DNA of 64,000 nt from Chiloscyllium plagiosum. Lineage: Eukaryota. Location of the stretch: assembly GCF_004010195.1 (NCBI RefSeq), contig NC_057749.1, forward strand, positions 9,311,492-9,375,491. Reading direction: 5' to 3'. Positions within the stretch are counted from its first letter, which is position 1, and each line of letters opens with the position of its first letter. A program made the position numbers and the translations under genes. Of this stretch, positions 9,815 through 61,300 are shown piece by piece. Under the pieces are notes generated by a model. The model worked only from the letters and a program-made list of their open reading frames with translations, did no database searches and was not told the origin of the DNA.

Positions 9815-10375
9815 ACCATTGACCAAAAACTGAACTAGATAAATAAATATTCTTGTTACAAAAACAAAGACTATAAACCCTGCAACAAGTCACCCATCCA
9901 CCATCTACCAAGCACCAGTCAGGAAAGTGATGGAATATACCCCACTTATGTGGATGAGGGCAGCTCCAATAACTCTTGAGAAGCTCAATACCATCCAGGA
10001 TAAAGTAGGTCACTTGATTGTATCTTCCCTTCTACCACCAAAACTCAGCAGCAGCAGTATGTACCATCAACAAGGTTCACTGCAGAAATTTACCAAGGCT
10101 CCTTAGACAACGCCTTCTGAATGTATGACCATTACCATTAAGAAGGAGAAGGGCAGCAGATGCATGACCTCCTGCAAGTTCCTGTCCAAGCCGCTCCTCG
10201 TTCTTACTTGGAAATGTATCGCCGTTCCTTCTGTGTCACTGAGTCAAAGTTCTTAACTCCCAAACAGTATTGCTGATGTACTGGCACTGAATGGACTGCA
10301 GTGGTTCAAGGCAGCTCAGCACCACCTTCTAAACGACAAATAGGAATGGGCAATAAATGCTGGACACCCATATCT
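9815..10375 (+). mobile_element. Older LINE (CR1/L2 group) 3' end; related copies at ~14860-15270, 19345-19600, 39050-39365, 63800-64000
   Basis: Recurrent GATGGAATA..CCACTT..TGGATGAG.GCAGCTCCAA...GGACTGCAG.GGTTCAAG...GGGCAATAAATGCTGG. Confidence 0.65.
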
Positions 10376-11928
10376 GATTAATAGAATATTTAAAAAATTG
10401 ATGACATTCTCTTGTAGTTATAGTTTTCGCTCTAAAAAGCAGAACCACTCTAATGAGTCAGGCTTATTTCCATGAAAATGGCCTTCTACAAACTATAAAA
10501 CGTGGACTAAGATCTCCTGTGTATAAAAACAACCAGCAACCTCCCAGTGCCTCTAGTAAAAATTCACTGAACTTCCCCTGCTATGCAATCACTTTTACTT
10601 TTTTAGTTCACATCAAGGTCAAGCCTACCTCTTAAAGTGGCAGGTCACAGAACAATCAAAAGCTTGATTTAAGGATGAATTCCTCCACATTGATTTGTAA
10701 AATGTGATCCTTTCTAATCAAGGAACTACAGGTACTGATTTTGTTGAAACACACTGTTGGGAATGCTGCCACTAATAAAATATGGAATGGAAAAGTGAAG
10801 GTTTGAGATATGAAAAAGATAAAAAGCAAATTGCATGGAGAGGATTTATGTCATCAATAATGTTTTCAGTCATTCTAATCACCCTTGAATCAATAATCTG
10901 CTACTATAAGAGTTGCAAACATCCTATACTTTTACAATGGGGATGAATAAATGAGATCCAAATATTTGAGTAGTTAATTTGAAAAAAATCAATCCTAGCT
11001 CTTATACACTGATCAGTGCTTGATCCTTTCCAGACCTCTGGAGAATGTAGAACAACATTTTGCTGTATTAAATCAGTAAGTGCCTTCAAGAGAATAAAGG
11101 GAAAAAAAATCAGAGAAAATATATGTCACTAAATGAATTGTAGAATTACTCAATGATAAGACAATGTCTATGATTGAACGCACAAAATGAAATTGCCTGT
11201 ATCTTTGTCATTATATTTGCACTATGGCTATAAAGGATGTATAAAATTTTGGTTCTTTTCTAAATGCAGTGTAATCTTTGAATACAGAAGGGATTGCAAT
11301 TGCAGCTTAATGAGGAACATATGCGTGCAGTAGAAATAGAGCAACAGGAACTACAGCAGCTAGCTTGAGGCGGTGACGTCCTGACATCGGTAAGAGAGAC
11401 ACGCAACAACCTCATAAAAAAATTACTTCAGTTAAATCTACTCAGCAAAACTGATTAACTGACCTCATTTGTTATGGTTATTGCTACTACCATTTGACAT
11501 TGTTCATTATGATGTCCGATAAAGATCTGTATTTTAGCTGTAATACACAGGGCATTCTGTATCCCTCTAACATATGAAAAGGAAATAATTTTACATTTTA
11601 CATGCAATATACTAGGGTTAGCAAGGTAAAAGAACGATAAGAGAAATGGGGTAAATTCTGGTCTCAGATAGTTTTCAGATGTCAATTTTGAGCTCTGTAG
11701 CCAGCTCACATCAGAACCTGAAAGGCCTTCACATCAATGAAAACTGAGCCTTGCACCTTCAAGGTATTTGTCCTAACAGGCATCTCAGCCAAATGAAGAC
11801 TGTGATGGACCATCTGACTCATTGGCGGCAGACTTTGGGGAAGTCCCAGGAGCAAAGACCGGAGTGGGTGACAGCAGCACTTCCAGATCTGTGGGTCATG
11901 ATCCTCAGTGGAATTTCAAGATATGATC

Positions 11929-12155
11929 AAAACCAAAAGAACTGCGGATGCTGTAAATCAAAAACAAAGATAGAAATTGCTGGCAAAGCTCAGCAGGTCT
12001 GGCAGCATCTGTGGAGAGAAATTAGAGTTAAATATTTCGAGTTGCGTTTTGATCCAGTTGTGAGGAAGGGTCACCAGCCCCGAAATACTAACTCTGATTT
12101 CTCTCCATAGATGCTTACCAGACCTGTTGAGCTTTCCATCAATTTCTGCTTTAGT
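11929..12155. mobile_element. Palindromic Penelope-derived element (empty form); relatives at ~39895-40055, 45765-45920, 53583-54040, 54806-54915, 58440-58550, 60575-60780
   Basis: Arms GCTGG.AAAGCTCAGCAGGTCTGGCAGCATCTGTGGAGAGAAA.AGAGTTAA and reverse complement. Confidence 0.75.
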
Positions 12156-14200
12156 TGTAAGATATGATTTGGGGGTTGCAAGCTCTGAGGCAGCAAGGGC
12201 TATTTGAAGTTCAGAGTGATTTCTGACAGCTGCAAGGTCCCTTGGAATATTTTGCATTTTCTTTGTTGATGGGTGTGACCTTAATAGTCTCCGTTTTGAG
12301 GTGTGATTGCTGCAGCTACAAAAAAAAGTGGGCAGGTGTTTGTGTTTTTCTGAAGAAGTCACTTCTTCCTCAACTCCTTTCACACTACAGTACTCCTATT
12401 CTCCTTCCCACCCCAGTCAAGAACTAAAGCCTAATCGCTCCGTTTCTCAACAACTGAAACCTTCCTCCACATCTTATCATCCCAACCCAATCCAACAACT
12501 CTTTCACCTCCCAGATTTTCATTCTGGGTCACACAAAGTCTGAGGCATTAAGGTGGGGTGATACTGGGAAAAGTTCAGAAAGCACTGGGCTACAGGTTAA
12601 GCCCATTGTGAGTTCCATTGAGTCACAGAAGTACACCTCCTCTTCCCGACTCCAGAGGCTGAAGAAGAAAAATTTAACTCGTCATTTTCAACAATTTTGA
12701 CAATTAATTACTTGGATGGCACCTTTCAAAAGGTTTGAAAACAGTTTGAATTTCGACGCAATTCTTTTGTATTAGCCAAGAATGTCTAAAAGGCAAAAGT
12801 GACGACTGCAGATGCTGGAAATTAGAGTCTAGATTAGAGTGGTACTGAAAAACCTGGATCCATTAATTTAGCGGTAAGATCCAATCTTGTGCAAATTGGA
12901 CACAGGCTGACCACTTTAAAGTTGGCACACATTGCATTCATTTCAGAACCCAAATCAGGAGTAACACATCCCAATTTCATCATCACAAAATGACAATTTA
13001 AAAAATCTAAATTCCTGGGGCATTAAATGTGTTCTAAGGCAAAACCGAGTCTGCAATTTCAGGGAAGTTAACTAGAGCTGTGTGGAGAATTTAATCTTGT
13101 GCAGCAGGGAAACAAAGGGAAAAATGATGTGTCATTGGAAACTAAAGGTAAACCTCATTTCATTATTTATACAAAAAGGAAAAAGAATTGAAAGAGGCTA
13201 AGCTGCCTAACACCTGAAAAGTCCATTTGCAAAGATGTTCACTCTGAATTAAACCCACTTATTTATAAATCATCCATTTATAATCCTTCTCACATAGACT
13301 TGTTTTTTTAGCTGTCACTGAAGTGTGAGCAATGTATCCTGTGAAAGGGAAATCTTGCTATGTTAAAAATCATGTGATAGAAAGATCATGTGATAGTAGG
13401 ACAAAATTGATAAAAATCACACTACTTTAAACCACAATTCCATCCTGTCCTAAAGATGTGATATTATCAGCTTTTGATTATATCTAATGCCACAAGTTGA
13501 GTTGTCATACAGATAAACAATAAAATGTAAGACACAATCTTGATTTGTGGTGGCAAGTTATTCGAAGGTGAAATGTTGCTTTCAAAAAGGCCCATATATC
13601 TCTTGGGTGATTAATATTATCCCTTACATCAAAATTGGTTTAAGATTGTTAAATAGAGTGAGGACAAATTAACATAGGCAAAATTACATACACAGTTGCA
13701 CAGTCATTTTCATGCTGATGTAAACCTGCATTTAAACATGAAAGGAAGGAAGTACATTTAGATAGCATCTTCATGACCTTAGGTATTGCGAACTGCTTTA
13801 AAGTTAATGAAGTATTTTTTGAAGTATTTAGTTACTGTTATATTATTGTAAATATAATTGCCAAATTGCACATAGCAAGGTCCATAAACAGTCCTGAAAT
13901 TAATAACCAGATAAATTGTGTGTGGCATTGGCTAAGAGATAAATATTGGCCAGAACAGTAGGGGGTTCCATCCCCCCAAGTTGTTCTTCAAATACTGCAA
14001 TGGTATCTTCAATATTTATCTGAGACCAAAGATGGGACCTTAATTTAATGTCTGATCCAAAGCAAGATTTCCTCAGTACTGCACAGGAGTGCCAATCAGG
14101 CTTAATCACAAATAAAAAAAAAGAAAATGCAGAGGATACTCAGGACAGATAATATCAATCGAGAGAAAACAAAAGTAACATTTCAGCCAAAAAAGGTTAC

Positions 14201-14472: not shown

Positions 14473-15999
14473 CATCAGAAATGGGAGAAGCTAGAGATGT
14501 AGTTGGTTTTAAGCAAGTGAAACATAGAAGGGAGAAATAGAATAAAAAGGAAAGTATGTGATAACTTGGAGAGGAGGTAGTTAAATGACAGAAGAGTTCA
14601 AAATGTAAGACAAAAGGGAGTGGAAATAGAACATTAAGAAACAGGATGTGCCTGGGGGGGAGGTGTGAGTGGCAGAATGTATAGCTGCCACCCTAAAACA
14701 AAAACAAGTGAAAAATGAAAATAAAACTGATGTCTTCAATGAGAAAGATATCAAAATTGGATCAGAGATCATGGTTTAAGATTGTTGAATTCATTGTTGT
14801 CTTCAAATGCTGGAAAGTGCCAAATGAAAAGAGAGGATGCTGTTCTTTTTGCCAAAATAAATTATTTATAGGCCGTGGGTGTTGTTAGCTTGACCAGCAT
14901 TTAATGCCCCAGAGAATGTGGTGGTGAGATTACTTCTTGAACTGCTGCAGTCCGTTTGGTGTGGTTAACCCACAATGCCATTGTGGAAGGAGTTCCCGGA
15001 TTTTGACCCACCAACACTGAAGACACGGTGATATATTTCCAAGTCGGGATGGTGTGCATCTTGGAAGGGAACTCGCAAGTGGTGCTCACATGGATCTACA
15101 ACTCTTGTCTTTCTTGATGGTAATTGTTATTTGTTAGGAAGATGCTCTGTCAAGAGTCCTGATGAATCTCTGCAGTGCACCTTGTAGGTAGTCCACACTG
15201 CAACTGTTTAGCATCCATGGTGGAATGTTTTTGAATGTGATGCTATCATACAGTCAATCTTCTTGGATATGATTAGATTAGATTAGATTACTTACTCACG
15301 CAGACATGGGGAGAATGTGCAAACTCCACACAGACAGTTGCCTGAGGTGGGAATTGAACCCGGGTATCTGGCGCTGTGAGGCAGCAGTGCTAGCCACTGT
15401 GCCACCATGCTGGAGCTAAACTTATTCATGTGTTATGGACCAGACCAAACCCCTTTCAAGTATTCAAGGAAGTAGCCTACACCATAATCTTTATCTTATT
15501 TAAAGGCAAGTGTAAGGTGCTATGTTTCAGATGTGATTCACACTACTAAGCTTTAAACAAAACACACTTTATTCTTACCCCAGGTTAAAAAACACACAAA
15601 ATAAAGTAGAATTGGTCTAACATTAAATCTATTGGAAAACTTAACCGAATAACAGATTATTTAACTAGTAAACAGTAACTTTTCCAATGCAGCAGCATCC
15701 CATAAGCGCATCATTGGTGAAGGCAAAGTCAGTAAAACAGATTGTCTCCCACTGGATTCTGGCAGCAAAAAGAGACCCCAAATTTTTAGCTGTAAGAGAG
15801 AGACAGCTTCCACATACAGCTTCAAAACTCCAACAACTGCTGAGACTTAAACTCAATGAGAGCCTGACTCCACGCATTCATGCTGCTTCTATTGTTCCAG
15901 GATTTTAAAAAATCTGCAAGACATCTTGAGCTATTTGTTTTATAAGCTTGGAATAGACCACTCATTACCTATATCTCAATCTCTCTTTGTAAAAACAAA

Positions 16000-18900
16000 T
16001 CCAGAGGTCATGGTACACATTGGCACCAATGACATAGCTAGGAAAAGGGATGAGGATCTAAAAAGTGATTCCGGGGAGTTAGGTTGGAAGCTAAAAAGCA
16101 GGACAAGCAGAGTAGTACTCCCACAATTACTACCGGTACTAGTGAGGTGAGGAACAGGGAGCTAGTGAGATGAGGAACAAGGAGCGAGTGCAGGTAAACA
16201 CGTGGCTACTGGGCAGGTGCAGGAGAAAGGGCATAGATCATTGCGGTACCTTCTGGGGAAGGTGGGACCTGTACATGAAGGATGGGTTGCACTTAAACTG
16301 GAGGGGCACCAATGTCCTGGGCAGGAGATTTGCTACAGCCTGTCAGGAGGATTTAAAATAGTTTAGCCGGGGATGGGAACCAGAGCTGCAGATCAGAGAG
16401 GGTAGTTGTTGAACAGGCAGAAATAGAATGCAGAGAGTCTGTCAGGAAGGATACACAGTTGATAGGGCAAAGGGATAGTTAAAGTGTTTTGTTTTGATGC
16501 AAGGAGTGTCAGGAATAAGAGTAATGAACTTAGAGGATGGATCAGTACTTGGAACTACGATGTTCTGGCCATAATGCAGACATAGATTTCACAGGGGCAG
16601 GAATGGTTGCTGGATGTTCCAGAGTTTAGATCTTTTAGAAAGAATAGGGAGTGGGGTAAAAGAAGATGTGGAGTAGCATTGTTAATTAGAGAGTGCATCA
16701 CAGCTGCAGAAAAGAAGGTTGTTGAGGAGGGTTTGTCGACTGTGTCAGTCTGTAACAGGAAAGGAGCAGTCACTTTCTTGGGTGTTTTCTATAGATCCTC
16801 CAATAACAGCAGAGAGATGGAAGAACAAATTGGACAGCAGATCTTGGAAAGGTGCAGATGTAACAGGGTTGTTGTTGTGGGTGACTTCAACTTGCCTAAT
16901 ATTGATTGGAACCTCCTTAGTGCAGATGGTCTGGATGGAGCCGATTTTGTCAAGAGTGTCCAGGAAGGATTCCTGACTCAATATGTAGATAGGCTGACTT
17001 GGGGGAGGCCATATTGGATTTGGTGCTAGGCAACGAGCCAGGTCAGATGTCAGATCTCTCGATGGGTGAGCATTTCGGTGACAGTGACCACAACTGCCTC
17101 ACCTTTACCATAGCCATGGAGAGGGATAGGAACTGGATGTAGGTTTGCTCACTGAGCTGGAAGATTCATTTCCAGACATTTCGTCACCCTACTAGGTAAC
17201 ATCTTCAGTGGGTCTCTGGGCAAAACACTGTTGATAATTCCTTTTTTCTATTTATATGTTTGGGTTGGTGATGTCATTTCCTGTGGTGACATCATAGGAA
17301 CAGACAGTATGGGATGGTATTTAATTGGTGGAGGGGAAATTATACTGCTATTAGATGAGCCGTGGAGTATAAATTGGGAACAGTTGTTCTACGGGAACTG
17401 CACAACAGAAATGTGGAGTCTGTTTAAGCTTCTGGTCAAGAGGAAGAAGGAAGCTTATTTAAGGTTGAGGAAGCAAGGATCTGGCACAGCTTTAGAGAAT
17501 TAAAGGGTAGCTAGCAAAGAAATCAAAAATGGACTGAGGAGAGCTAGGAGGGGACACGAAAAAGTCTTGGGAAAACCAAAGGCATTCTACACTCACGTGA
17601 GGAATAAGAGAATGATCAGAGAGAGGGTAGGGCCAATCAGAGATAGTGAAAGGAACTTGTGCCTGGAGTCTGAAAAGGTAGGGGAGGCCCTAAATGAGTT
17701 TTTTGCTTCAGTATTCACCCGAGAGAGGGACCTTGTTGGTAGTGAGAACACTGTGGAGCAGATTAGTAGGCTTGAACAGATTGATATTAAGAAAGTAGAT
17801 GTGCCAAAAATTCTGGGAAGCATCAAGATGGATGTCCCCAGCTGGACCAGAGATATCCAAGGTTACTAAGGGAAGCGAGAAATTAGATTCTTGCGCCTCT
17901 TGTGATGATCTTTGCATCCTCACTTTCCATGGGAGTAGCATTGGATGATTAGAGGAAGGTGAATTTTGTTCCTCTGTTCAAGAACGAACTAGGAAAATCC
18001 CTGGGAATTACATACCAGTCAGTCTTGCATTTGTGATAAGCAAGGTACTGCAAAGGATTCTGAGAGATAAGATTTATGACTATTTGGAAAGAACTGTGTT
18101 TGATTAAAGATTGTCAGCAAGGCTTTGTAAGGGGCAGGACATACATCAGAATCCTTATTGAGTCCTTTGAGGATGTGACAAGACAAGTTGACAAAGGTCG
18201 AGCAGTGGATATAGTGTATATGGATTTCAGTAAGGCTTTTGATAAGGTTCCCCACAGTAGGCTCATTCAGAAAGTTAGGAAATATGGGATACAGGGAAAT
18301 TTGGCTGCAGGATACAGAATTGGCTGGCAGAAAGAAGACAGCGAGTGGTAGTGGATGGAAAATATTCCGCCTGGAGGTCAGTGACCAGTGGTGTCCTGCA
18401 CGGTTCTGTTCTTGGGCCTCTGCTCTTTGTAGATTTTATTAGTGACTTGGGTGAAGATGTGGAAGAGTGGGTTAGTATGTTTGCCAATGACACAAAGGTC
18501 GGTGCTGTTGTAGATAGTGTCAAGGGCTGTTGCAGATGACAACAAGACATTGACAGGATGCAGAGCTGGGCTGAGAAGTGGCAGATGGAGTTCAATCTGC
18601 ATAAGCTTTGGATGGTCAAATTTCAATGCTGAAAAAGGGTTAAAATAGGATTCTTGGCAGTGTGGAGGAACAGCGGGATCTTGGGGTCCACGTATAAAAA
18701 TCCCTCAAAGTTGCCACCCAAGTTGGTAGGGTTGTTAAGAAAGCTTATGGTGTTTTGGCTTTCATTAACAGGGGACTGAGTTTAAGAGCTACGAGGTTTT
18801 GCTGCAGCTCTAAAAAACCCTGATGAGACCACACTTGGAATATTGTATCCAGTTCTGGTCACCTCATTACAGGAAGGATGTAGATGCTTTAGAGTGAGCG

Positions 18901-22679: not shown

Positions 22680-25600
22680 CATAAGATCATAAGACATAGG
22701 ATCAAAGATTAGGCCATTCAGCCCATTGAGTCTGCTCTGCCATTCAATGTGACTGATAAATTCCTGGAACCATTCCTGATGAAGAGCTTGTGCTCGAAAC
22801 ATCGATTTTCCTGCTCTTCGGATGCTGCCTGACCTGCTGTGCTTTTCCAGCACCACACTCTCGACTCTGAGCACCAGCATCTGCAGTCCTCACTTTCTCC
22901 TCCCATTCTCCTGCTTTCTACCTGTAATCTTTGATCCACTTTACAATCAGGAGCCCATCTATCACCGTCTTAAATAAACTCAATGACCTGGCCTCCACAG
23001 CCTTCTGTGGCAATGAATTCCATAGATTCACCACTCTCTGGCTGAAGAAGTTTCTCCATACCTCTGTTCTAAAAGGTCTCCCCTTTACTCTAAGGCTGTG
23101 CCCTCGGGTCCCAGTCTCTACTACCAGTGGAAACATCTTCCCAGTATCCACTCTGTCCAGGCCATTCAGTATTCTGTATATTTCAATTAGATATCTCCCA
23201 AACTTCTAAACACCATCAAGTATTGATCCAAGTCTTCAAATGTTCCTCATATGTTAAGTTGTTCATTCCTGGGACCGTTCTCATGAATCTCCTCTGAATA
23301 TGCTCCAAGGCCAGCACATACTTCCTGAGATATGGAGCCCAAAACTGCACACAATACTCCAAATGTGGCCTGACCAGGGCTTTGTAGAGCCTTAGAAGCA
23401 CATCCCTGCTTTCATATTCAAGTCCTCTCTAAATAAGTGCCATCATTGCATTTGCCTTCCCAACTACTGTCTCAACCTGCAAGTTTACTTTGAGAGAGTC
23501 CTGGACTAGAACTCCCAAATCTGTTTGCACTTCAGACTTCTGAATTTTCTCCCCATTTATAATGTAGTTCATGCTTCTAATCTTCCTACCAATGCGCATG
23601 ACCTCACTTTCCCACGTTGTACTCCATCTGCCATTCTTTGCCCTCTCTCCTAACCTGTCCGAGTCCTTCTGCAGCCCCCTCCCCTGCCTCCTCAATGCTA
23701 CTGTCCTTCTACTTTGCATCACCTGCAAACTTAGCCAGAATGCCCTCAGTTCCTTCATCTGGATCATTAATGTACAAGTGAAAAGTTGTGGTCCCAACAC
23801 TGAGCCCTATAGAGCACCACTTTTCACCAGCTGCCACCCTGAGAAGGACCCTTTTCTGCTTTCTGCCAGATACCCAAGCTTCTATCCATGCTAGCACCTT
23901 GCCTTTGACACCATTGGCCTTTTTCGTACTCAGTAGCCTCTTTTGTGGCACTTTTCTTGAAGTCCAGGTAGGTAACATCCATTGGTTCTCCTTGGTCGAA
24001 TCTGCTCGTTACTTCCTCAAAGACTTCTTGCAGATTTGTCAGGCATGACCTCCTCTTGATTAAACCATGCTGACTCTGCCCTATTTTACCATACACTTGC
24101 AAGTATTCAGAAATCGCGTCCTTCATAATGGATTCCAGGATCTTACCCATGACTGAAGTCAAGCAATTGGTCTGTAATTTTCCATTTTCTGCCTTACTCT
24201 TTATGTTTGTGATTTCCCAGTCCTGTGGGATCCTCCCTGCTTCTCGCATGATTTCTGAAAGATTACCACTTACGCCCCCACTATCTCCTCACGTATCTCC
24301 CTTAGAATCTGGGGTGTAGTCCATCTCGTCCAGGTGAGTTATCCACCTTCAGGCCATTCAGTTTTTCTGATATCTCCTCCTTGGTGATGGCCACCATACT
24401 AAGCTCTCCCCTCTCACTCCCCTTCTCACTCCCTTGAATTCTTTGGAAATTATTTTGTTTTCCACTGTGAAGACTGATGTGAAGTAATTATTCAGTTCCT
24501 CAGCAATTTCTTTGTTCCCCACAGCTATATCTTCAGCGTCATTTTCCAATAGCCCAAAGTCCGCTTTTTGCCTCTCTTTTGCCCTTTATATATCTAAAGA
24601 AGCTCTTACAATCTTCCTTTATGTTACTGGCCATCTTACCCTCATATATAATCTTCTCCCTCCTTATTTCTTTTTTTTGTTGCCCTGTGTTGGTCTTTGT
24701 AAGCTTCCCAATCCTCTAGTTTCCCACTGTTCTTTGCTACTTATGTGCTTTCTCTTTTGGTTTAATGCTGAATTCCCTAGTCAGCCATGGTTGCCTCATT
24801 CTCCCTGTACCATGCTTCTTTTTCCTCAGGAATAATCTCTGCTAAGTCTCCTGAATTACTCCCGGAAACTCCTGCCATTGCTGTTCCACTGTCTTCCCTA
24901 CTACACTCATCTCCCAGTCAATTCTGTCCAGCTCCTCCCTCATTCCTCTGCAGTTGCCTTTAATCAGCTGAAATACCATTTCCTCCGATTCTATCTTCTA
25001 TCTCTCAAATTGCACAGTAAAATACATCATGTTATGATCATTGCTTGCTAAGGGTTCCTTCACCTTAAGCTCCCTTATCAAGTCTGCCTCATTGCATAAT
25101 ACTAAATCCAGTATTGCCTCGTGGGCTCCATCACAAGCTGTTTCTAAAAGCCATCTCGTAGACATTCCAGAAATTACTTTACTTGCGACCCACTCCCAAC
25201 CTGATTATCCCAGTCCACCTGCATATTGATATCGCCCATCATCATTGTAATTTTGCCTTTCCTACACATCTTTTCTATCTGCTGGTTTATCTTGCACCCC
25301 AGCTCCTGACTACTATTTGGAGGCCGATATATGACTACAGCTATGGTTGTTTTACCTTTTGTGGTTTTTTCAATTCTTCCCACACAGATTCTACACCATC
25401 TGACCCTACATGGTTTCTTGATTTAATTTCATTTCTTGCTAATAGGGCAAGTCCACAGGGACGGCTTGGTGGCTGAGTGGTTGGCACTGCAGCCTTACAG
25501 CACCAGGGACCCAGGTTCAATTCCCACCATGGCGACTGTCTGTGTGGAGTTAGCACATTCTCCCTGTGTCTGCGTGGCTTTTTTCCGGGTGCTCCGGCTT

Positions 25601-31949: not shown

Positions 31950-34920
31950 ATGAAGTGTTGTTTTGCATGCTCTACAGACACATCATTCTATACAAAGTGC
32001 ATCAGGGTAGCAGAACAAAGAGCAGAATGCAGTTTAGGGTGTAGGTTTGCTCGCTGAGGTTTGATATCCAGCCGTTTCATTACCTGGCTAGGTAACATCA
32101 TCAGTGGCGACCTCCAACAAGCTGTTGTCTCCTGCTTTCTATTTATATGTTTGTCCTGGATGCGGTTCCTGGGGTTTGTAGTGATGTCATTTCCTGTTCA
32201 TTTTCTGAGGGGTTGATAGATGGTATCTAGATCTGGAGGTGGCGCCTCATCTTCCGCCTAGGAACCCTCCAACCACACGGGATGAATGTAGATTTCTGCA
32301 GCTTCCTCATTTCCCCTCCCCGCACCTTATCTCAATCCCAACCTTCTGATTCAGCACCGCCCTCTTGACCTGCAATCTTCTTCCCGACCTCTCCACCCCC
32401 ACCCCCTCTCCGGCCTATCACCCTCACCCTCACCTCCTTCCACCTATCATATTCCCAGCGCCCTTCCTCCAAATTCCCTTCCCCCTACCTTTTATCTCAG
32501 CCTGCTTGACACACCAGCCTCATTCCTGAAGAAGGGCTTATGCACCAAACGTCGATTCTCCTGCTCGTCGGATGCCGCCTGGCCTGCTGTGTTTTTCCAG
32601 CACCACATTTTCCAACTCTGGTACTCCAACATCTGCAGTCCTCACTTTCTCCTAGTTTGTTTAGCCTGTCCCAGGATAGATGTGTTGTCCCAGTCGAAAT
32701 GGTGGTTTTTTTCCTCCGTGTGTAGGGTTACAAGGGAGAGAGGGTCGTGTCTTTTTGTGGCTAGCTGGTGTTCGTGTATCCTGGTGGCTAACTTTCTTCC
32801 TGTTTGTCCTACGTAGTGTTTGTGGCAGTCCTTGCATGGAATTTTGGAGACGACGTTGGCACTCCAACCACAACGCCATAAACAAACACATAGATCGAGA
32901 TACCATCTAACATCCTCTCAGAAAATGAGCAGGAGATGATATCACCACAAACCCCAGGAACCACATCCAGGACAAACATATAAATAGAAAGCAGGAGACA
33001 ACAGCTTCGCTTCACTTGGAGGTCGCCACTGATGATGTTACCTAGCCAGGTAACGAAACATCTGGATATCAAACCTACAGCTCAGCGAGCAAACCTGCAC
33101 CTAAACCTCAACCTGAGCTGCAAACCTTCGCAAACCTTGCAGCAGAATACAGTGTTACGAGCCAGAGAGAAGGTGTAAAGAGAGAGAAAGAGAAAGATCA
33201 GAATTAACATTCAAAATCCTGATAACAGCAGGGAAGAAGTTGTTCTTTAATTTGTTCCTACATGTATTCAAATTTTTATATTTTCTGCCCAGTGGAAGCG
33301 GGTGGAGGAGAATATAACTGGAGTGAGGGGGACCTTTGATTATTTTGGCTGCTTTCCAAGATAGCGGAAAGTATAGATGGAGTCAATAGATGGAAGGCTA
33401 GTTTGCATCATCGTACTGTATTCATGATTCTCTGTAGCTTCTTGTGGTCTTGGGAAGAGCAGTTGCTGTACCATGCTGTGATGCTTCCAGATAGGATGCT
33501 TTCTGTGGTACATCTTTAAGGTGAGAGTCTTTCTGGACATGCCGAATTTCCTTAGCCTCCTGAGGAAATAAAGATATTGTTGTGCTTTCCTGGCCGTCAA
33601 GTCAGTGTGGGTGGACCAGGACAGAATGTTGATGATCATCTCTCCCAGAAACTTGATCTTCTTGGCCATGTCCACTTCAGCACCATTGATGCAGACATGG
33701 GCATGCCCTCCTCTCCGCTTCCTTAAGTCAATTACCAGCTCCTCCAACAGTAGTGTTATCCCAGTCGAATTCATGTTGCTTGTCACCTGCGTGTGTGGCT
33801 ACTAAGGATAGCTGGTCGTGTCGTTTCGTGGCTAATTGACAACGCTACTATTATAGGACAAGCCAAACAGAGAACAGCCAGGGAATTTCTAGAGGCATGG
33901 CACTCATCCACAGATTCAATCAATAAGCACATCGACCTGGACCCAATATACCGACCACTGCAACGGACAGCTGGAACTGACAACCGGAAGCGGCAGATTC
34001 AAACCACTATAAATGCCAGAGGAAACATCACAGAAGTGCTTCACAGGAGGCTCCCAAGCACTGAGGATGTCACCTAGACAGGGGACGAAACATCTGCAAC
34101 ACAAATTCCCAGCTCGGCAAACAGAACCACAACAATGATGTTGGTATCCTTGTTAACCAGATGTTCCAGGGATGAGTGGGGGGCCAGGGAGATGGCATCT
34201 GCAGAGTAACTGTTAGAATTAGTATTAGGTTTATTGTCATGTCTACTCAGGTGCAGGGATACAGGAATACAGTGAAAATTTTAGTAAGTCACCATTCAGG
34301 GCACCACCTTAGGTACAAAGTTACCTAAGTACAAAATCTTACAAGAAAAGAAATAAGTTAGAAGTTAAACATCACACTTCTTGTCAGTACAAAGTGGTAA
34401 ATAACAAATCAAGTTTAAAGTTCCAAATTACAGTCCTTGTTTAACCATGAGCCTGCAGTCACCCCATGCTGGGTTTCTCCCGGAAGGGCTTAGTCAAACT
34501 CCCATGCTGGGCTTGATTTCTCTCCCACGCTGGGCTTGATCTTTCGATCCCTGCACTTCCATGCTGCCATGTTGCCTCCAACTGCCATCCAGGCTCGCCA
34601 CAGGCCGTCAGATTCCTGCTCTGGTGTTGCTTCCACAATGCATTATTGACCAGTCCACCAACTCTAAGCAGTCCTATAGAAGACCTTCCGTTGACCAACA
34701 TTGCATTACTTTCTGTACTGGGTCCACAGACATCAATTTCTGCTTGTAAACCAGAAGGAGGAGCTCAGCATTGTGACCTGATTTTCCAAATTGCAGACAG
34801 AGAATGGAGCAATAGCCATTTTTGGTTGAGTGACATTGGTTAAGGATGTTCGGACCTCTTGTGGGACAGGAGATGTGTTGATGGTATTTTGGTAACTTAC
34901 TCTTGAGGTTGGAAGTGTTC
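31950..34920 (-). mobile_element. Rex1/Babar-clade LINE remnants interrupted by Penelope insertions (~32032-33140, ~33746-34135)
   Basis: KFLG....LSWSTHT..TARKAQQYLYFLRRLRKFG (33340-33745); HISCPTRGPNILNQC...FGKSGHNA.LLL.VYKQKL (34674-34937). Confidence 0.75.
32032..33140. mobile_element. Penelope element with inverted termini, carrying a second-family Penelope 3' end (~32233-32655)
   Basis: 32032-32232 is the reverse complement of ~32890-33105; the internal segment matches 840-1120. Confidence 0.85.
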
Positions 34921-37045: not shown

Positions 37046-37258
37046 CAAAAGTGAGGACTGCAGATGCTAGAAACCAGAGTTTAGATCACAGTGGTGCTGG
37101 AAAAGCACAGCAGGTCAGGCAGCATCTGAGGAGCAGCAATATTGACATTTCGGGTAAAAACCCTTCATCAGGAATAGATGAAGGGTTTTTGCCCAAAACG
37201 TCAATTTTCCTGCTCCTCAGATGCTGCCTGACCTGCTGTGCTTTTCCAGCACCACTCT
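37046..37258. repeat. Penelope-derived palindrome downstream of the cyp1a stop codon
   Basis: 37090-37169 and 37177-37256 are inverted repeats, 75/80 matches. Confidence 0.9.
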
Positions 37259-37884: not shown

Positions 37885-40089
37885 CTAAAATACACAAGTG
37901 GGAAAACTGAATGAAATTTTCTATAACCTCGAGAGAAAATGGCATAAGAGAGTTTGTTCATTTATTTCAGAGCTAAACATTATAAATGTTTGCTGGAATC
38001 AGACATCAAAAATAAAAGAACTGACTGATTTAATACTGAGAGCTGGAAGTTACAGAGATCTTCAAAGAACCTTTGTCCAAATGATGACCTGTCATTTTAT
38101 TTCAGACAGTCAAATTTGTTACGCTTTTCCAGTTGTCAGATGTTGCAATTAACCTTAAAAAGAAATTCAATATTTTTGTTTTGGTTTTATTTGGTGAACA
38201 TTTCTAGCCCTTTTGCATGATTCATTGAAAACAAAATCTCACTTCCGACTTAACCAACCCTGCAGACCTTGTACACTCATTGTGGATCATTCAAATAATA
38301 GTGTGTAAAATTTGCTGTCAGACTGTTTCAGAAAGGAACACAAGAATTACACAAGAATATATTTATTATTTACAGCACTGGGAAAATAAATTTCATCATG
38401 TTGTTTCACTTGACAAAATTAAAAGAAAACAACAATTTACATTGAAACCTAATATAGAATGGCTACTGTCTGAAATTGACTCAGCACTCACCAAAACTAA
38501 TTTCAACCTTGGGCTATGGTATTGTACGGGTAAAATGGAATTAGCTGGCCACTGTACGCTATGCCCAATTCTATTAATGTCAATGGAAGGAAAAGTATTT
38601 GGATGTTAATATTGCCATCGCCCATAGCTAAATTATTTCCATAATCCTTCCATTGTTTGTTTCTTCTTATCATTTCCTGACACGTTGTGTCTTATTCGTC
38701 ACATTATCATCTCTCCAAGCATTCTTTCAAACCTCATTTTGAGATGATGAAATATGGTAGTGAACAATAGAATATCACCACTGAATCTAATACATGTGTA
38801 ATGTCAAAGAATGGAGAGGGGTGGAATCTCCACTAAAACAGCCTCTGGAAATGGAACTCTGCCAACTTAGGTTCTGGTGGGAGTGGAGGTTGGCATATTT
38901 TAACTTTCATGTGACATTGCTGAGCAAGATAGGAATCAACATCTTATTTAGATTTCTTTTACACTAATGGATGTTTTTCCAGAAATAAATAAACAGTGAA
39001 AAAAATTGATTTGCATATCATCAATGAATTGGAAGTAGGTGGAGTATGATCATATTGATTTTGGGAACAGTGACAAATTCAACAGTAGCTCCCAAACCTC
39101 CAGCCTATACCACCTAGAAGATTAAAGGTGACAGGCATCTGGAACACCATGATCTACAAGTTTCCTTTCAAGTGTCACACCATCCAGAGTTGAAACTTTC
39201 ACTGGATCAAAATCCTGGATTCCATCCATAACAGCACCATGGATACAGACATACCCCATAGACAAGAACAGTTCAGGGTGATAGCTCACCACCCTCCACT
39301 CAAGGTTAATTAGGGATGGACACCAAATGCTGGCCTTACTAGTGACCCTGACCCATGAATGAATTAAAATGTAAAATGCCCTGGACGAGACCAGAGATGT
39401 ATCATCAGCTTGTGTTTTAGGGATTTTAAAAATAGCACTAAAGACTGCTCCAAGACTGTTTCAAAGAAGGACCATAAGGGCTGCAATAAATGTATCATTT
39501 ACAGTAATGTAAAAAAAAACTCCTCGTATCTAATGCTGTAGGTTTAGCTGTGTATCTTACATGATTTGCACACATTCCATGATCATAAGCCAGAGTGTGT
39601 GTAGCTGCAGTGAAACACTGCTGAAGTTGTGCCAATTCTTTCACACTGCCGATGATTATGCTTTCAGAGCTTTGATGCAATGTTGAACCACGAAGTGTGG
39701 GATTCAAAAAAAAACAGCTGCCAAGGCAGCCTACGTAAACAAATTAGGAAAAGAATACCTTGATTAACAACAAAGAAAAGAGGTGGTCATCTCTGGATAC
39801 AATTACTGTACATTGCTGTGTTCTCTGAAGTTCAGGTCAAATAGTTCTGCGTAGGCACTAGTGCTAAATGTAGCAGCACAATCTGGGAGTCAATTATAAA
39901 ACAGAAATTGCTGGAAAATCTCGGTTCTTCTTCAGTTCTGGGTCATTTGGCCCAAAACATTAACTGTGCTTTTTCCCTGCAGATGCTGCTATACCTGCTG
40001 AGATTTTCCAGCAATTTCTGTTTTTGTTTCTGATTTCCACATTCTCAGTTCTTTTGGTAATTTTGTCTGAAAGTCAATTAGTTGAAGTA

Positions 40090-47162: not shown

Positions 47163-47589
47163 CTTCAAAAAGAACAAAAACTCATCAGTACCACTGTGGA
47201 AAAGCCTTCTCCAATCTTCTGCATTATTCTTTCTGGGGAGGTGGGCTCACTGGCTGGGCCAGCATTCCTAACTTCCTTGAGAAAGAAGGTGAGCTGCCTT
47301 CTTGAACGGCTGCAATCCATTTGGTTTGAGGTGACCCACCCTGCCGGGCTGGAGGAAAAGAGCGATTTGTTTCCAAATCAGAATAATGTTGGTGCGTACA
47401 GGACGAGATGACTTTTTTGTTTGGAAGAAAAACAATAAAGAAAAACAAAAGGACAAATGTCTTCCCTCAACAAGCGGATAGAAAAACTCTCCTCCTCCAA
47501 AACAACAGCAGAAACCAACAACAGCAGGAACGCACTGACTGTAGCCCCAGCCAGCACAGAGCCAGTGCCCTAAAATGAGATTCTAAATC

Positions 47590-48306: not shown

Positions 48307-48433
48307 CAGCTCCAAATAGATCATTAACCAGGCTGACGATTTTTTCATCAGATATCTGAATGTTGGCATTCTCGTCCATTTTTTTGTCCTGACAGTGATC
48401 GATCAGGGAATCGGTTATATCGCGTATATTATC
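48307..48433 (-). CDS. cyp1a: CYP1A exon 3 (127 bp)
   Basis: tttccag|GAT...GCT G|gtgagt; [42 protein letters not shown]; canonical CYP1A exon length. Confidence 0.98.
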
Positions 48434-48542
48434 CTGGAAAGGTGAGATGAGTTTTTTTAAAAATTAATAACACGAAGTGGACGAGAACTGCAAAAAAAAG
48501 GGCTAAGTTTTACAGGGGAAAAACACAAAGGTGGGTTCTCAC

Positions 48543-49382
48543 CTTGTCAAAGGTGTTGTAATGTTCCGTGACAATCTTCTTGATGAAGTTCGTGAACTGG
48601 ATGTTGATGTTGATGAATTTCCTCATGGAGCAGCCGGGCAGGAAGCGGAGGATGGGGATGAAGTCGGCCAGGTTACCGGACGCCGCGACCTTCACGAACT
48701 CGTCGGCCACGCTGAGGACGCTGAGGAACTCCTGGTCGTCGTGGGCGTACCGCTTACCGAAGCACAGGGCGCAGATGACGTTGGCCACCGACACCACGAT
48801 GTAGCGGACCGGGTCGAAGGCGCCGCGGCTCCGGGTCAGCTCGGTGAAGATGCCGATCAGGTGCTGCGCCTCGCCGCTCACATGCTCCTCCAGCAGGCAC
48901 GAGTGCGTGGAGTTCCTGCACTCGTCCGTGGCGAAGGTGCGCAGCGCGCTCTGCGCCAGCTTCCGACGGATCCTCCACACCTCGGAGTTCTCTTGGCTGA
49001 AGGTCAGGCTCTTGCCGTCGTTGATGAACCTGAAGCTGTAGAGATCCGGCCTCCCGGCGAAACCATCTCCCTGCTTGATGAGCGCTTGCTTGAGCGTGTC
49101 CTGCCCGCTCAGTACCACCACCGGCCGGCTCCCGATCTGAATCTGGAAGATGTCTCCGTACTGCTTGCTCAGGGCGGTCAGTCTCAGGTGCGGGTTCGGT
49201 CCCAGCTGCAGGTTCCTGCCGATCAGGGGCAGGCTGGACGGACCCGGCGGCTCCTGAAGCCCCTGGGGGATTCGGATCCGGCGCCTGTGGATCACCAGGA
49301 AGATGAGCGAGAAGACGGCGAGACCCAGCAGCACCTCGGTGACCGACAAGGCCAGCAGCCCAGCACCAAGGCTCCTGATCAT
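48543..49382 (-). CDS. cyp1a: Cytochrome P450 1A, exon 2 (first coding exon, 280 codons)
   Basis: Acceptor ctctcccgcag|GTTAAG ATG; MIRSLGAGLLALSVTEVLLGLAVFSLIFLV membrane anchor, PPGP hinge, YGDIFQIQIG, FAGRPDLYSF, WRIRR C-helix, SVANVICALCFGKRY; donor GACAAG|gtgaga. Confidence 0.98.
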
Positions 49383-49572
49383 CTTAACCTGCGGGAGAGC
49401 AAGCGACTTGAAAAACCACCATGAGACATACGCACAGATTCCTTGCAACTACCGCCGAAGCGCTGACCATCTGCTGAATCAAACTGCACTGAAAGTAGCA
49501 TAACTATCACCTCAATAATCTGTTTAAAATTGGTTTCTTTTACTGAGCAAATTTGCTGCATGTTTTTTTTTT

Positions 49573-49950
49573 AAAAACCGTAAGTACTGCGGATGTTGTA
49601 AAACTGGAAAAGCTGAGCAGGTCTGCCTGCAACATCTGTGGTGAGAAATCAGAGTTAACCTTTCAGGTCCAGGGACCCTTCCTGGGAAAAGGGCGATTTG
49701 TTTCCAAGTCAGGATAACACCCTGACAGTGATCGAACCGGTGATATCGCGCATATTATCCTGGAAGAGAGAGATGCGCAAAAAGAATGAATAACAGGAGG
49801 TGGACGGGAAAAAACGTTAACTGCAAAAAAAAAGCTACATTTACAGGAATTTGTCAAAGAGGAAGGACCCCTGGACCCGAAACGTTAACTCTGATTTCTC
49901 ACCATAGATGCTGCCAGACCTACTCGGCTTTTCTGTTCTTGTTGCTGCAG
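49573..49950. mobile_element. Penelope-derived inverted-repeat element in intron 1 enclosing host-gene-derived sequence
   Basis: Left arm to 49683 and right arm from 49860 are reverse complements; filler matches 47354-47386 and 48388-48517. Confidence 0.85.
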
Positions 49951-50244
49951 ATTTGTCAGACAATAGCAAAAGTGGCGCAGGTAAAACTGCACCTCACACG
50001 AAAAGCAGAATGTAAAAGCATCCAGTTCTGATTTCTGTGCAATAGGACAGTCCAAGGCACCGGGCGGCGGGTCCTGCTCGCTTCGCTGCATCTTTACAAC
50101 ATTCTCCCCACTCCCCGCGCCTCCAACACGCGCACACACATTTACACAGTCTCAATTCTGAAAAGTATGGATTGCTATCAGGGGGCAGGCAAGAAAGGGG
50201 GAAAAGCGCAAAAGGGGGAAAGTACACCCTCAGCCCGTGCATAC

Positions 50245-50337
50245 CTGCTCCCCTCTTCAAGGTAGTGTCCGCGCTGAACTTGGCAAATTGCAAGTTGGAG
50301 CTAACGGCTAGCACTGCAAGAAGCACAGGCACCGTGT
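50245..50337 (-). other. cyp1a: Predicted non-coding exon 1 of cyp1a
   Basis: Starts ~31 bp below TATAAAA at a CTTACAC initiator-like site; ends at GAGCAG|gtatgc; vertebrate CYP1A genes have a short non-coding first exon; TSS inferred. Confidence 0.75.
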
Positions 50338-58315: not shown

Positions 58316-61300
58316 ATGGGGAGGTAGTGGCCTAACAATGTTCTTGTGGATGGTTCATCCAGACACCCAGACAATCCTCAAACTTTTGAACCACCAACAA
58401 TTTTGCTTTCCTTTCACTGTCCTTAAAATAGCAATATTTCCGAAGGAGCTTTGACAAAGGGTCAGTTAGACTCAAAACGTCAGCTCTTTCCTCTCCTTAC
58501 AGATGCTGCCAGACCTGCTGAGATTTACCAGCATTTTCTCTTTTGGTTTAATATTTCTGAAGGCTTTTGACAGATTTTTTTTTGTGGCATGGATCTTCAG
58601 GAGATGTCAGGACAGGTGCCTCGAAGCTTCATAAAAGTTGCAGGCATCGAGGATTATCTCAAAGGAGAAAAGAGAGGTGGTAAGCTTTAAGGAGAGAATT
58701 CCAGAGTGTAGGGCCTGGACACCTGGATGTGTGATAGGCAACTGTAGATGGAATAAAATAAGGGATGCATAAGAAGCCATAAGGGATGCATAAGAAAGAG
58801 CAGAGCAAACATCAGTGAACTGGATCATAGAATCTCTATAGTGTGGAAGCAGGCCATTCAGCCCATCGGATCCACACCAACCCTCTGAAGAGCATCCCAC
58901 CCAGACCTACCCCAGACCCTATCCCTGGAACCATAAATTTCCCATGGCTAATCCACCTGGCCTTCACATCCCTGGATATTATGAGCAATTTAGCAATCCG
59001 CCTAACCTGCAGACATTTGGACTGTAGGAGGAAACTGGAGCACCTGGAAGAACCCCACACAGACACAGGGAGAATGTGCAAACTCTACACAGACAGTTGG
59101 CCAAGTCTCTGGTTTTACAAAAGTCACTGATAGATGTCATAGTCAGGTTCAGAGTTTTTATATTGCAATATATTTTTAAAAAACAGAAACATTGATGGAA
59201 GTAGAATTCATATGGCTTTCAAAGGAGTGTGGAAAAATATTTGGATACTTTTCAAGAGGTATGGGAAAAGTGGAGTAGAATAATTGGACAGATTTTTCAG
59301 AGTGTCTGGGAGGAGTTAAATTACATTTTTCCTACTGGAAAAGTTTATCAGCTACATATTGAACATGGATATTGCTTAGAATGTGAAGAAATGGAACAAG
59401 ATATAATATGGAGGTGCTCCCGTTATAGGTACATACATTCAAATTATATGGTGTAAAATTGTATGTTAATTCCTTTTATTAAGTTACAAGAATTACAATT
59501 TGGAAGAATGACAACGGACTAATTATAATTGACTCACCAAAGTGTGGCATGCCATGTTTAGATTAAAAGCACAACTATATTTTTACCAAAACATGTGATA
59601 TTCGAAAAGTAGCTGATGTATTCTGAAATCAAATGCAAAAGAATTGAGAAAATGTTTCCCTTGCAGAGCACAGCCTGAGAAAATTAAGCAATAAAAAAGG
59701 GAAATTCTGAATTTTAAAAAAGGGAAATTCTGAATTCTGAAAAGAAAGGCATAAGAGAGCCCAAATAATGTAAGTGCATAAATACAATCAAAGCTCTAAA
59801 AGTTTGCATTTATATGGCAACTTCCATAACTATAGGATCTGCCAAAAGCATTTTTCAGCAAATAAAGTAGCTTTGAAGTACTGTTCTACAGAATGAAATG
59901 CAGCAATTGATTTGTACCTTTTAAACAAAAAGGAAATAATGACCAGAGAAGTTCTAAAGAAGAGTCACTGGACTGGAAACGCTAACTCTGGTTTCTCTCC
60001 ACTGATACAGCCAGATCTGTTGAATTTCTCCAGCAATTTCTGTTTTTGTTTGACCAGATAATTTGTCCTGATAATATTGGCTAGTCACTGGGGAAAAGCA
60101 TCCCTGTGCTTTTCACTACAGCAATTTATATGCACCTGAACAGGCAAATTGAGCATCTTATCCAGGCACCATTGGCTCTGCAGCAATCCTCAGCACAGAG
60201 TGAAGTGTGAGCCTGATTCTTGTGATCAAGTCTCTGGAGTGGGATTTTTTTCCAAGATTTTCTGACTTAGAAGCAAAAGTGATATCAGCTGCTTGTATAT
60301 TGGCATAAAATTACGAGACTGGCTACACATGGTCATTGCCAAAAACATATTTACATTTCTTGGCAAATATTTATACACTACTATCTAATTCTATCATTGG
60401 TTCTGGTACAGCATTTAACTTTCTAACAAAACCCACAACAGCACCTCATTGCTTTTATACGGTGTCTCTTAATGTACCTAACATCCCACCCTAAGGCATT
60501 TAACAAGAGCTTTATTTATTTTTTAAAAAACCTTTTTGAAAGGAGCAATTTGAAAGAAAGGATGAGAATTTTAAATATAAATAGAAAATGCTATGGGAAA
60601 CTCAGCAGGTTTGGCAGCATCTGTGGAGAGAGAAACAGAGTTAGCATTTTGAGTCTGATCTGACTCTTCTTCAGAATGTTAACTCTGTTCCTCTCCCCAT
60701 TGTTGCTTCAGACCTGCTGAGTATCTCCATTATTTTCTGTTTTTATTTCAGTTTTCCAGCATCTGCAGTATTTTGTTTTTATATGAGGATTTTTGAAATT
60801 GTGACATAGTAGATGTGTCGATGTAGGTCAGCACACAAAGCAGTATTGTCCAAATGTGACCTAATACAAGTTTAGATATGTTTAGCAGAATTTTGGATGA
60901 GTGCAAGCTGATGCAAGATGGAAATGAGGATGATGGTCAAGACAGCATCACGTCTCGAGGGACTAAAGGCACGAGTGAGAGTTTCGCCAGCAGAGAATAT
61001 GATGGGTGGCACGGTGGCTCAGTCATTAGCACTGCTGTCTCACAGCACAAGGGACTCAAGTTCGATTCCCCCCTCAGGCAACTGTCTGTGTGGAGTTTGC
61101 ATGTTCTCCCCATATCTGTGTGGGTTTCCACCAGATGCTCCAGTTTCCTCCCACAGTCCAAAAATGTGTGGGTTAAATGGATTGGCCATGCTAAGTTGCC
61201 CACAGTGTTCAGGCATGTGTCGTTTAGGCGTGTGAGCCATGGAAAATGCAGTGCTAAAGGGATAGGTTAGATGGATACATCTGGGTGGGATGCTCTTCGG

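Follow-up and report, generated by a model that had tools for sequence, protein, structure and literature searches.

How does a gene come to hold fragments of itself in its own first intron, enclosed between two inverted copies of a repeat? We asked this of a CYP1A-type gene on the minus strand of a 64-kb stretch of Chiloscyllium plagiosum contig NC_057749.1 (the window, to which positions refer unless stated otherwise). Translation of 49448-48543 gave human CYP1A1 (4i8v, E 4e-85) and CYP1A2 as best matches. The gene model (Table 1) draws on an mRNA-like contig of run X8, in which exon 2 is joined to letters found at 50249, with a loose end at 49392. A first-pass annotation had described the structure in intron 1 as a Pack-MULE-like capture of host sequence by a hammerhead-bearing Penelope derivative. 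As set out below, the unit consists of two Penelope-type retroelement tails in inverted orientation, old and dead, and gives no indication of function or of later movement.

TABLE 1 Features of the CYP1A-type gene, the inverted unit in its intron 1, and the donors of the filler
Feature	Positions	Strand	Description
Intron 1	49389..50244	-	856 nt, holds the entire inverted structure; basis, mRNA-like X8 contig
Exon 2	48543..49388	-	First coding exon, ATG at 49382-49380
Intron 2	48542..48434	-	Basis, sequence and mRNA-like X8 contig
Exon 3	48433..48307	-	127 nt; basis, sequence and mRNA-like X8 contig
Left arm	49573..49683	-	Family unit in antisense orientation; basis, alignment with the 11929 copy
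Right arm	49860..49950	+	Unit in sense orientation, begins AGGAAGG, no outer tail extension
Filler	49684..49859	+	At the inverted junction; 176 nt, patchwork copied from the same CYP1A gene
Piece 1	49685..49717	+	Intron 3, 47354-47386; 30/33 identical (90.9%), 3/3 differences transitions
Piece 2, exon part	49721..49759	+	First 46 nt of exon 3 (48388-48433), GATCAGG missing in this assembly
Piece 2, intron part	49760..49847	+	Intron 2, 48434-48516, broken by a 10-nt insert (about 49809-49818)
Arm-like snippet AAACGTTAACT	49812..49822	+	11 nt identical to right arm 49880-49890
Filler end TTGTCAAAG	49851..49859	+	48544-48552, penultimate 9 nt of exon 2
Donor 1	47354..47386	+	Intron 3; falls within an unrelated repeat of high copy number
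Donor 2	48388..48552	+	5' 46 nt of exon 3 (48388-48433), intron 2 (48434-48542), and end of exon 2

Anatomy of the inverted arms

A repeat search recovered inverted arms of 55 nt at 49629-49683 and 49860-49914, 89% complementary and 176 nt apart, in agreement with the ~175 bp of the first-pass annotation. With gaps allowed, 66 of 74 aligned positions pair (89.2%), and the minus strand of 49561-49950 is predicted to fold as RNA into one long hairpin (-161 kcal/mol, z -12.7, equaled by 0 of 100 shuffles). The left arm carries an outer tail extension of ~28 nt (49573-49600) and an internal deletion of ~21 nt. Its inner end, ..CCTTCCT, falls ~8 to 10 nt short of the usual 5' end of the unit; beyond the equivalent of 49683, most family contigs run on as CAGAACTGAT. 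Both inner ends lie within 1 nt of one unit position.

Two substitutions are common to both arms: a T in ..TGGTGAGAAA.., where other arms with that context have A (15 of 15), and a G in ..CCAGGG.., where they have T (6 of 6; 311 kb examined in each case). On these shared substitutions the arms are sister copies, not the two independent insertions that the first-pass annotation had named as a possible refutation. No significant TSD was found around the intron-1 copy, the best candidate being an 8-mer, TTGCTGCA, that was matched by 184 of 2000 shuffles; the case for one insertion thus rests on the shared substitutions and the architecture. Neither arm was seen to have a TSD of its own.

The filler is a patchwork of the same gene

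Both pieces that the first-pass annotation had recognized between the arms were recovered, the first from intron 3 and the second (49721-49847, matching 48388-48516) from the 5' part of exon 3 plus intron 2. It had placed them in gene order and orientation with ~1 kb missing, and the donors are indeed collinear with the gene and separated by 1001 nt. Introns are included, so the copied sequence is of DNA or pre-mRNA level, as had been proposed. The exon part of piece 2 retains the adjoining intron-2 acceptor (ttccag, minus strand). A third and smaller match, TTGTCAAAG, ends the filler and comes from exon 2, so that the whole of intron 2 falls within the donor; in place of the 27 donor bases preceding it, the filler has AAT. 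The CAC at 49718-49720 matches neither donor and is untemplated, and microhomology of 0 to 2 nt was found at three of the five filler junctions.

The intron part of piece 2 also contains a short stretch of the element itself. The snippet AAACGTTAACT, which comprises the 10-nt insert plus flank, sits exactly at the indel between filler and donor, and the donor resumes at a shared AACT. We estimate the chance of such a match, with seven inserted bases matching upstream of an arm AACT, at ~1e-4, and we read the snippet as a probable switch of template to the arm, with a return at AACT. The arm-derived 11-mer inside the filler indicates that an arm was already present during filler synthesis.

The source of the filler is traceable to this gene. 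Searched whole, it occurs at two places in the 3.56-Gb assembly, namely, itself and exon 3/intron 2 of the same gene. With as many as 3 mismatches allowed, the 33-mer of piece 1 likewise has two places assembly-wide, one in the filler and one in intron 3, and this still holds against the 329 genome-wide candidates of the high-copy repeat in which donor 1 lies. Since the filler and the 33-mer have only these two places each, both pieces derive from sequence no more than 2.3 kb away and keep the order and orientation of the gene. A closer CYP1A paralogue, which had been suggested as a possible donor, was rejected, as none was found in an assembly-wide search with the filler. The repeat copy around donor 1 occupies 47260-47420 in intron 3, and others lie at ~14861-15050 and 10203-10348 in the window.

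The structure is real and old

Contigs of three other runs bridge arm, filler, and arm: run X6 record 19 (49643-49919), run X8 record 28 (49629-50200, with 3 differences), and run X18 record 2 (49630-49888). Run X20, which has a third species label, supplies a contig at 49662-49762 (7 differences) that takes in left-arm sequence, all of piece 1, and the beginning of piece 2; cover in X20 ends short of the right half, and the gaps at 49765-49857 are uninformative. Together, the bridging contigs and the left half in X20 establish that the structure is real and old, and it was fixed before the sampled species labels diverged. An assembly artifact is rejected on the same bridging contigs; the first-pass annotation had named a lack of long-read support as a refutation, and the other runs support the structure. 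No empty allele was seen among contigs of other public runs. Joints skipping ~200 nt were considered as empty alleles and rejected, their sides being short (21 to 55 nt) and drawn from other copies of the family. A contig of run X8 lacks 17 nt of intron 1 at 50006-50022 and otherwise shows 3 differences from the window in 572 nt.

The 7-bp deletion noted in the first-pass annotation (GATCAGG, between 49733 and 49734) is real in the window and in X8, but it does not belong to the event: the 7 bp are present in X6 and X18, so the deletion is later or polymorphic. Runs under one species label differ from one another at this indel. Piece 2 matches its donor at 105 of 129 positions overall, with identity of ~93% in the exon part, where the donor is constrained, and ~75% in the intron part (counted on the alignment). 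The filler appears at least as diverged from its donor as the arms are from each other, within wide errors, since few positions were counted and gene conversion between the arms could have distorted the values.

The sole mRNA-like contig seen, that of run X8, joins exon 1 directly to exon 2 and skips the inserted fragment. With the unit intronic, old, and skipped by this contig, no effect on cyp1a is suggested.

The arms belong to a Penelope-type, hammerhead-bearing family

BLAST searches with real copies found many relatives of the arms in the window and in loci of the same assembly. The family has the adjacent, inverted, 5'-truncated copy, head to head, that characterizes Penelope-like elements. 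Its pairs carry a single TSD of variable length: 10 bp at 11929, 13 bp at 37054, and 9 bp at 39897 in the window, and 12, 8, and 15 bp around whole pairs at loci L043, L042, and L061. Inner truncation points vary among these TSD-flanked pairs. Solo units occur with TSDs of their own (7 to 11 bp), among them the unit at 59950-60051 and the left arms at L037, L046, and L047. In pairs compared for their outer ends (the 11929 copy, L043, and L042), one arm has ~30 extra outer nucleotides, and the ~28-nt extension confined to the left arm of the intron-1 copy corresponds to the tail found at one end in Penelope elements.

A clean reference for such an insertion unit is the dimer at 11926-12156, with a 10-bp TSD (AAGATATGAT), asymmetric inner truncation, a one-sided tail of ~31 nt, and a spacer of ~23 nt. 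The family had been called empty outside intron 1, which is right for the dimer at 60551-60782, where there is no spacer, but not for 11929-12155, with its asymmetric arms and ~23-nt spacer.

Longer forms of the arm were found at L035, L037, L040, and L061. Contigs of other copies run past the inner ends of the arms as ..CAGAAC.. or ..GTTCTGAAGAAGGGTCACTGGAC.., and the latter stretch holds a CUGANGA box, a bulged A, a GGGUC/GACCC helix, and GAAAC; the L035 copy carries a hammerhead-type motif. The minimal hammerhead descriptor of PMC4209133 combines CUGANGA, GAAA, and a cleavage triplet with a bulged base 5' of helix II. Judged against it and the Penelope-like features given in PMC4209133, PMC8557442, and PMC3846280, these sequence features support assignment of the arms, at the level of the family, to a Penelope-type, hammerhead-bearing group. 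The earlier description of a hammerhead-bearing Penelope derivative thus stands for the family but not for this copy: both intron-1 arms begin AGGAAGG within the CUGANGA box, so that CUG is missing and the box is incomplete. Rfam returned no hammerhead at the gathering score in the whole 64-kb window and none at E<=10 in 49400-50100. A min-HHR-like pattern (CTGANGA, 10 to 24 nt, YRAAAYRTY) occurs five times in the window against 0.16 expected. These matches, at 17175-17208 (-), 22776-22803 (+), 33029-33062 (+), 34061-34094 (+), and 37144-37171 (-), lie in other Penelope-type families, and none reaches the Rfam gathering score.

Cis-templated centers recur but are rare

We asked whether other head-to-head pairs have filled centers. 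A degenerate two-motif pattern found 119 places with 120 to 400 nt between motifs, versus 0 for a control. From these, 28 were examined as pattern matches with +-3-kb stretches, a small and hand-picked sample in which 6 pairs had been returned as loci and 22 were chosen for foreign-looking sequence beyond the arms. Most proved to be longer element forms, adjacent separate units, other repeats, or independent insertions. The last group includes L037, L046, and L047, where the left arms have TSDs of 10, 8, and 11 bp and plain host DNA lies between the arms.

A clear cis donor was found in 1 of the 28 pairs, 22 of which had been picked as foreign-looking. This pair, L043, is a single insertion with the 12-bp TSD around the whole unit. 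Of its 76-nt center, 66 nt were copied from a unique sequence at a distance of 0.67 kb, which they match at 86.4% in direct orientation and which has 2 places in the genome. The arm start beside its junction is stuttered, and its tail-bearing arm is on the donor side, as at the intron-1 copy. With one parallel among 28 pairs, the phenomenon is recurrent but rare. The first-pass annotation had staked its reading on the existence of other filled copies, and L043 is one; it had also expected many spacers to derive from nearby or genic DNA, and a clear cis donor was found for L043 among the 28 pairs.

The remaining pairs include TSD-flanked L042, whose 148-nt center comes from a high-copy repeat with its best match 25 kb away; this match (82%) is below the identity of the L042 arms (89%), so a donor is not established. 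The arms of L042 have a layout mirrored relative to that of the intron-1 copy and L043. For the inter-arm stretches of L038 (211 nt) and L037 (157 nt), each present at a single place in the genome, no donor was found. Local matches at L054 and L057 were rejected as cis donors, being other high-copy repeats. Among the short spacers of five dimers in the window, no local templating above shuffles was detected. Element-derived mosaics are present at other junctions, namely, a 22-nt tail piece at L040, a palindromic junction at L035, and an arm fragment at L050, which indicates that template jumping at the inverted junction is usual in this family.

When and how the filler was made

We favor, at somewhat better than even confidence, a templated filler laid down while an inverted insertion intermediate was being joined, all within one retrotransposition event. 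A single Penelope-type retrotransposition would have placed a head-to-head pair of 5'-truncated tails in cyp1a intron 1. As the two inward-facing ends were joined, the growing strand would have switched template several times: 33 nt came from intron 3, the next stretch ran through exon 3 and intron 2 into the end of exon 2, and the element arm briefly served as template along the way. Sealing to the other arm would finally have left the templated filler at the inverted junction. We infer this template-switch path, and synthesis at insertion and not later, from the agreement in ages, the junction mosaics usual in the family, and the polarity shared with L043. The polymerase may have been the element's reverse transcriptase or a host repair polymerase, and the template may have been DNA or nascent pre-mRNA. 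The first-pass annotation was right about the class of mechanism, having named template switching at insertion or repair at the hairpin center. Several observations weigh against synthesis at insertion. The arm ends agree within 1 nt, and breakage of a finished palindrome at its center accounts for this no less well; the donor may once have had the 10-nt arm-like insert and lost it since; a clear cis donor is present in so few of the other pairs, and that of L042 is not established; the TSD candidate is not significant; the divergence counts are small; and the filler shows little microhomology at three of its junctions, besides the untemplated CAC.

Revision of palindrome centers is established, and it is possible, if unlikely, that the filler arose in this way. 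A near-perfect palindrome would have broken at its hairpin or cruciform tip, and end joining with microhomology-primed copying of nearby DNA would have both filled and stabilized its fragile center. The long predicted hairpin suits such a history, as do the arms, which end within 1 nt of the same unit coordinate ~8 to 10 nt before the usual 5' end, and the filler, which is a low-processivity cis patchwork with an arm snippet. However, we estimate that the 1-nt symmetry has about a 1-in-5 chance if each side lost 0 to 15 nt, and junction mosaics are common even in asymmetric dimers that were never perfect palindromes. Furthermore, divergence of filler from donor is not smaller than that between the arms, either in the intron-1 copy or in L043, so any delay before break repair would have been short.

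It is distinctly improbable that the reverse transcriptase jumped from element RNA onto nascent cyp1a pre-mRNA, which would make the filler a cDNA of an unspliced transcript. The geometry is compatible with such a jump: the gene is on the minus strand, the plus strand of the filler continues the cDNA-sense strand of the left arm, and the filler runs from intron 3 to exon 2, or 3' to 5' on the RNA. All donors lie within the transcribed region, introns are retained, and Penelope elements are reported in PMC3846280 to keep introns and to make template jumps. Yet the orientation fit has a 1-in-2 prior and lends no specific support, and a displaced non-template DNA strand of the same polarity explains the same facts. 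The RNA acceptor points would be internal and each template would have been left midway, in contrast to end-to-end jumping. The arm snippet is in unit sense and would need antisense RNA or a DNA template, and the reading would further require germline expression.

Head-to-head neighbors at L037, L046, and L047 demonstrate that independent insertions can produce similar layouts, but two solo insertions around an older local duplication of cyp1a are very improbable in intron 1, given two arm substitutions seen in no other arm examined, the matching inner ends, a one-sided tail typical of single units, the arm-derived 11-mer in the filler, and the absence of a visible TSD for each arm. A Pack-MULE-like mobile capture, with an inverted repeat able to move the gene fragment and to open an exon-shuffling route, is scarcely credible: a fragment with an intact acceptor does lie between inverted repeats, and Penelope terminal repeats mobilized host genes in a rotifer in the case described in PMC3846280, but the filler is single copy besides its donor (as in L043), the arms, being truncated tails, have neither a complete hammerhead nor coding capacity, variable TSDs of 8 to 15 bp and the occurrence of solo arms point to a retro-type element as opposed to a cut-and-paste one, and the mRNA-like contig, by skipping the fragment, gives exon shuffling no footing.

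Relation to known systems

Filler DNA, templated insertions, and revision of palindrome centers after breakage are known at double-strand breaks. The intron-1 filler resembles such repair products in its short patches from nearby, little microhomology, small untemplated runs, and an asymmetric center that stabilizes a palindrome. It has what defines templated filler, patches copied from near the site with little or no homology, and L043 is a second case. Unlike in break repair, a break independent of retrotransposition is not needed, and the polarity in common with L043 hints at an insertion intermediate.

Pack-MULEs are Mutator-like DNA transposons carrying gene fragments, and the likeness to them ends with the gene fragment between inverted repeats. 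Instead of Mutator-type TIRs with 9- to 11-bp TSDs and cut-and-paste movement, we found retro-type units that also occur solo, with no TSD of fixed length and no chimeric transcript seen. Pack-MULE fragments are carried to new loci; here, the captured piece is present once only in 3.56 Gb outside its donor, so nothing has been mobilized, and the Pack-MULE label gives way to that of a dead retroelement dimer of another transposon class.

In L1 elements, genomic DNA templated from near the site has been reported at insertions (PMC11702581). Features shared with the events described there are inward priming of two ends that gives an inverted structure, a junction resolved through end joining or microhomology, switching between templates, and additional sequence copied from genomic DNA close by. 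In contrast to L1, an APE-type LINE, the shark element is of the GIY-YIG Penelope type and both arms start from the element's 3' end; and in contrast to the cell culture events, the shark case is fixed in the germline and older than the divergence of the sampled species labels.

Rotifer Penelope elements are among the closest systems in print. PMC3846280 describes in them spacers of host DNA, host genes with introns enclosed by the repeats, inverted junctions that are palindromic, and jumps between templates. The insertion unit of Pen1 from Adineta vaga, as presented there and in PMC8557442, consists of a pLTR and an adjacent inverted 5'-truncated copy, with a one-sided tail of 30 to 40 bp and a short TSD. 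The shark family shares with it head-to-head inverted truncated copies, variable TSDs (8 to 15 bp in shark family members), a tail on one arm, a hammerhead-type motif in the unit, messy or palindromic junctions, and foreign DNA inside the unit. The differences from the Pen1 accounts are that the shark units are tails of ~100 to 130 nt without an ORF and that their foreign DNA is 176 nt long, lies exactly at the inverted junction, and comes from a cis source 1.1 to 2.3 kb away, whereas Pen1 spacers are 0.9 to 1.5 kb and described simply as host derived. The first-pass annotation knew of no description of such a capture in sharks. Our literature search, mostly of papers outside subscription, likewise found none in sharks, nor any of cis-templated centers in Penelope dimers, so the claim of novelty survives narrowly; capture of host DNA by Penelope (PMC3846280) and nearby templating by L1 (PMC11702581) are already in print. 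With similar events published for both, the intron-1 case offers a neat natural example and perhaps a way into the study of Penelope integration.

The intron-1 copy and L043 share an order of donor, tail arm, direct copy, and tailless arm. This could reflect a polar integration, a quite unlikely proposal, in which the strand from the tail-bearing arm would continue on host sequence behind it and then join the second arm; the host template would be nascent pre-mRNA or the displaced non-template strand of the same chromosome. If so, dimer centers would be readable records of the intermediate of Penelope integration, and intron-containing exon fragments would be duplicated into introns at a low rate. 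The Penelope transposition cycle is presented as unresolved in PMC8557442, a 2021 paper that calls for an in vitro system for tandem and inverted structures. A genome-wide census of dimer centers with traceable cis sequence could test models of the joining step, since such centers reveal what templates lay at hand while the ends were being joined.

Two other loci with family members showed less usual arrangements. At L036:1400-1900 (G000:C1:15205912-15206205), two adjacent family units have flanks with inverted duplicates of each other (..CAGCCAGATAATAACC.. and ..GGTTATTATCT.., ..CCACACAGCAAACTCCCA.. and ..TGGGAGTTTGTTGTGTGG..), a pattern that suggests a more complex rearrangement at the site. 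A near-perfect palindrome of ~330 nt lies at L062:3001-3328 (G000:C27:39650071-39650398). Past the family unit, each of its arms continues for ~110 nt with non-family sequence that is shared by the two sides and differs between them at one base in its first 74 nt, and the palindrome may represent a snap-back copy of an arm plus extra sequence or another subfamily.
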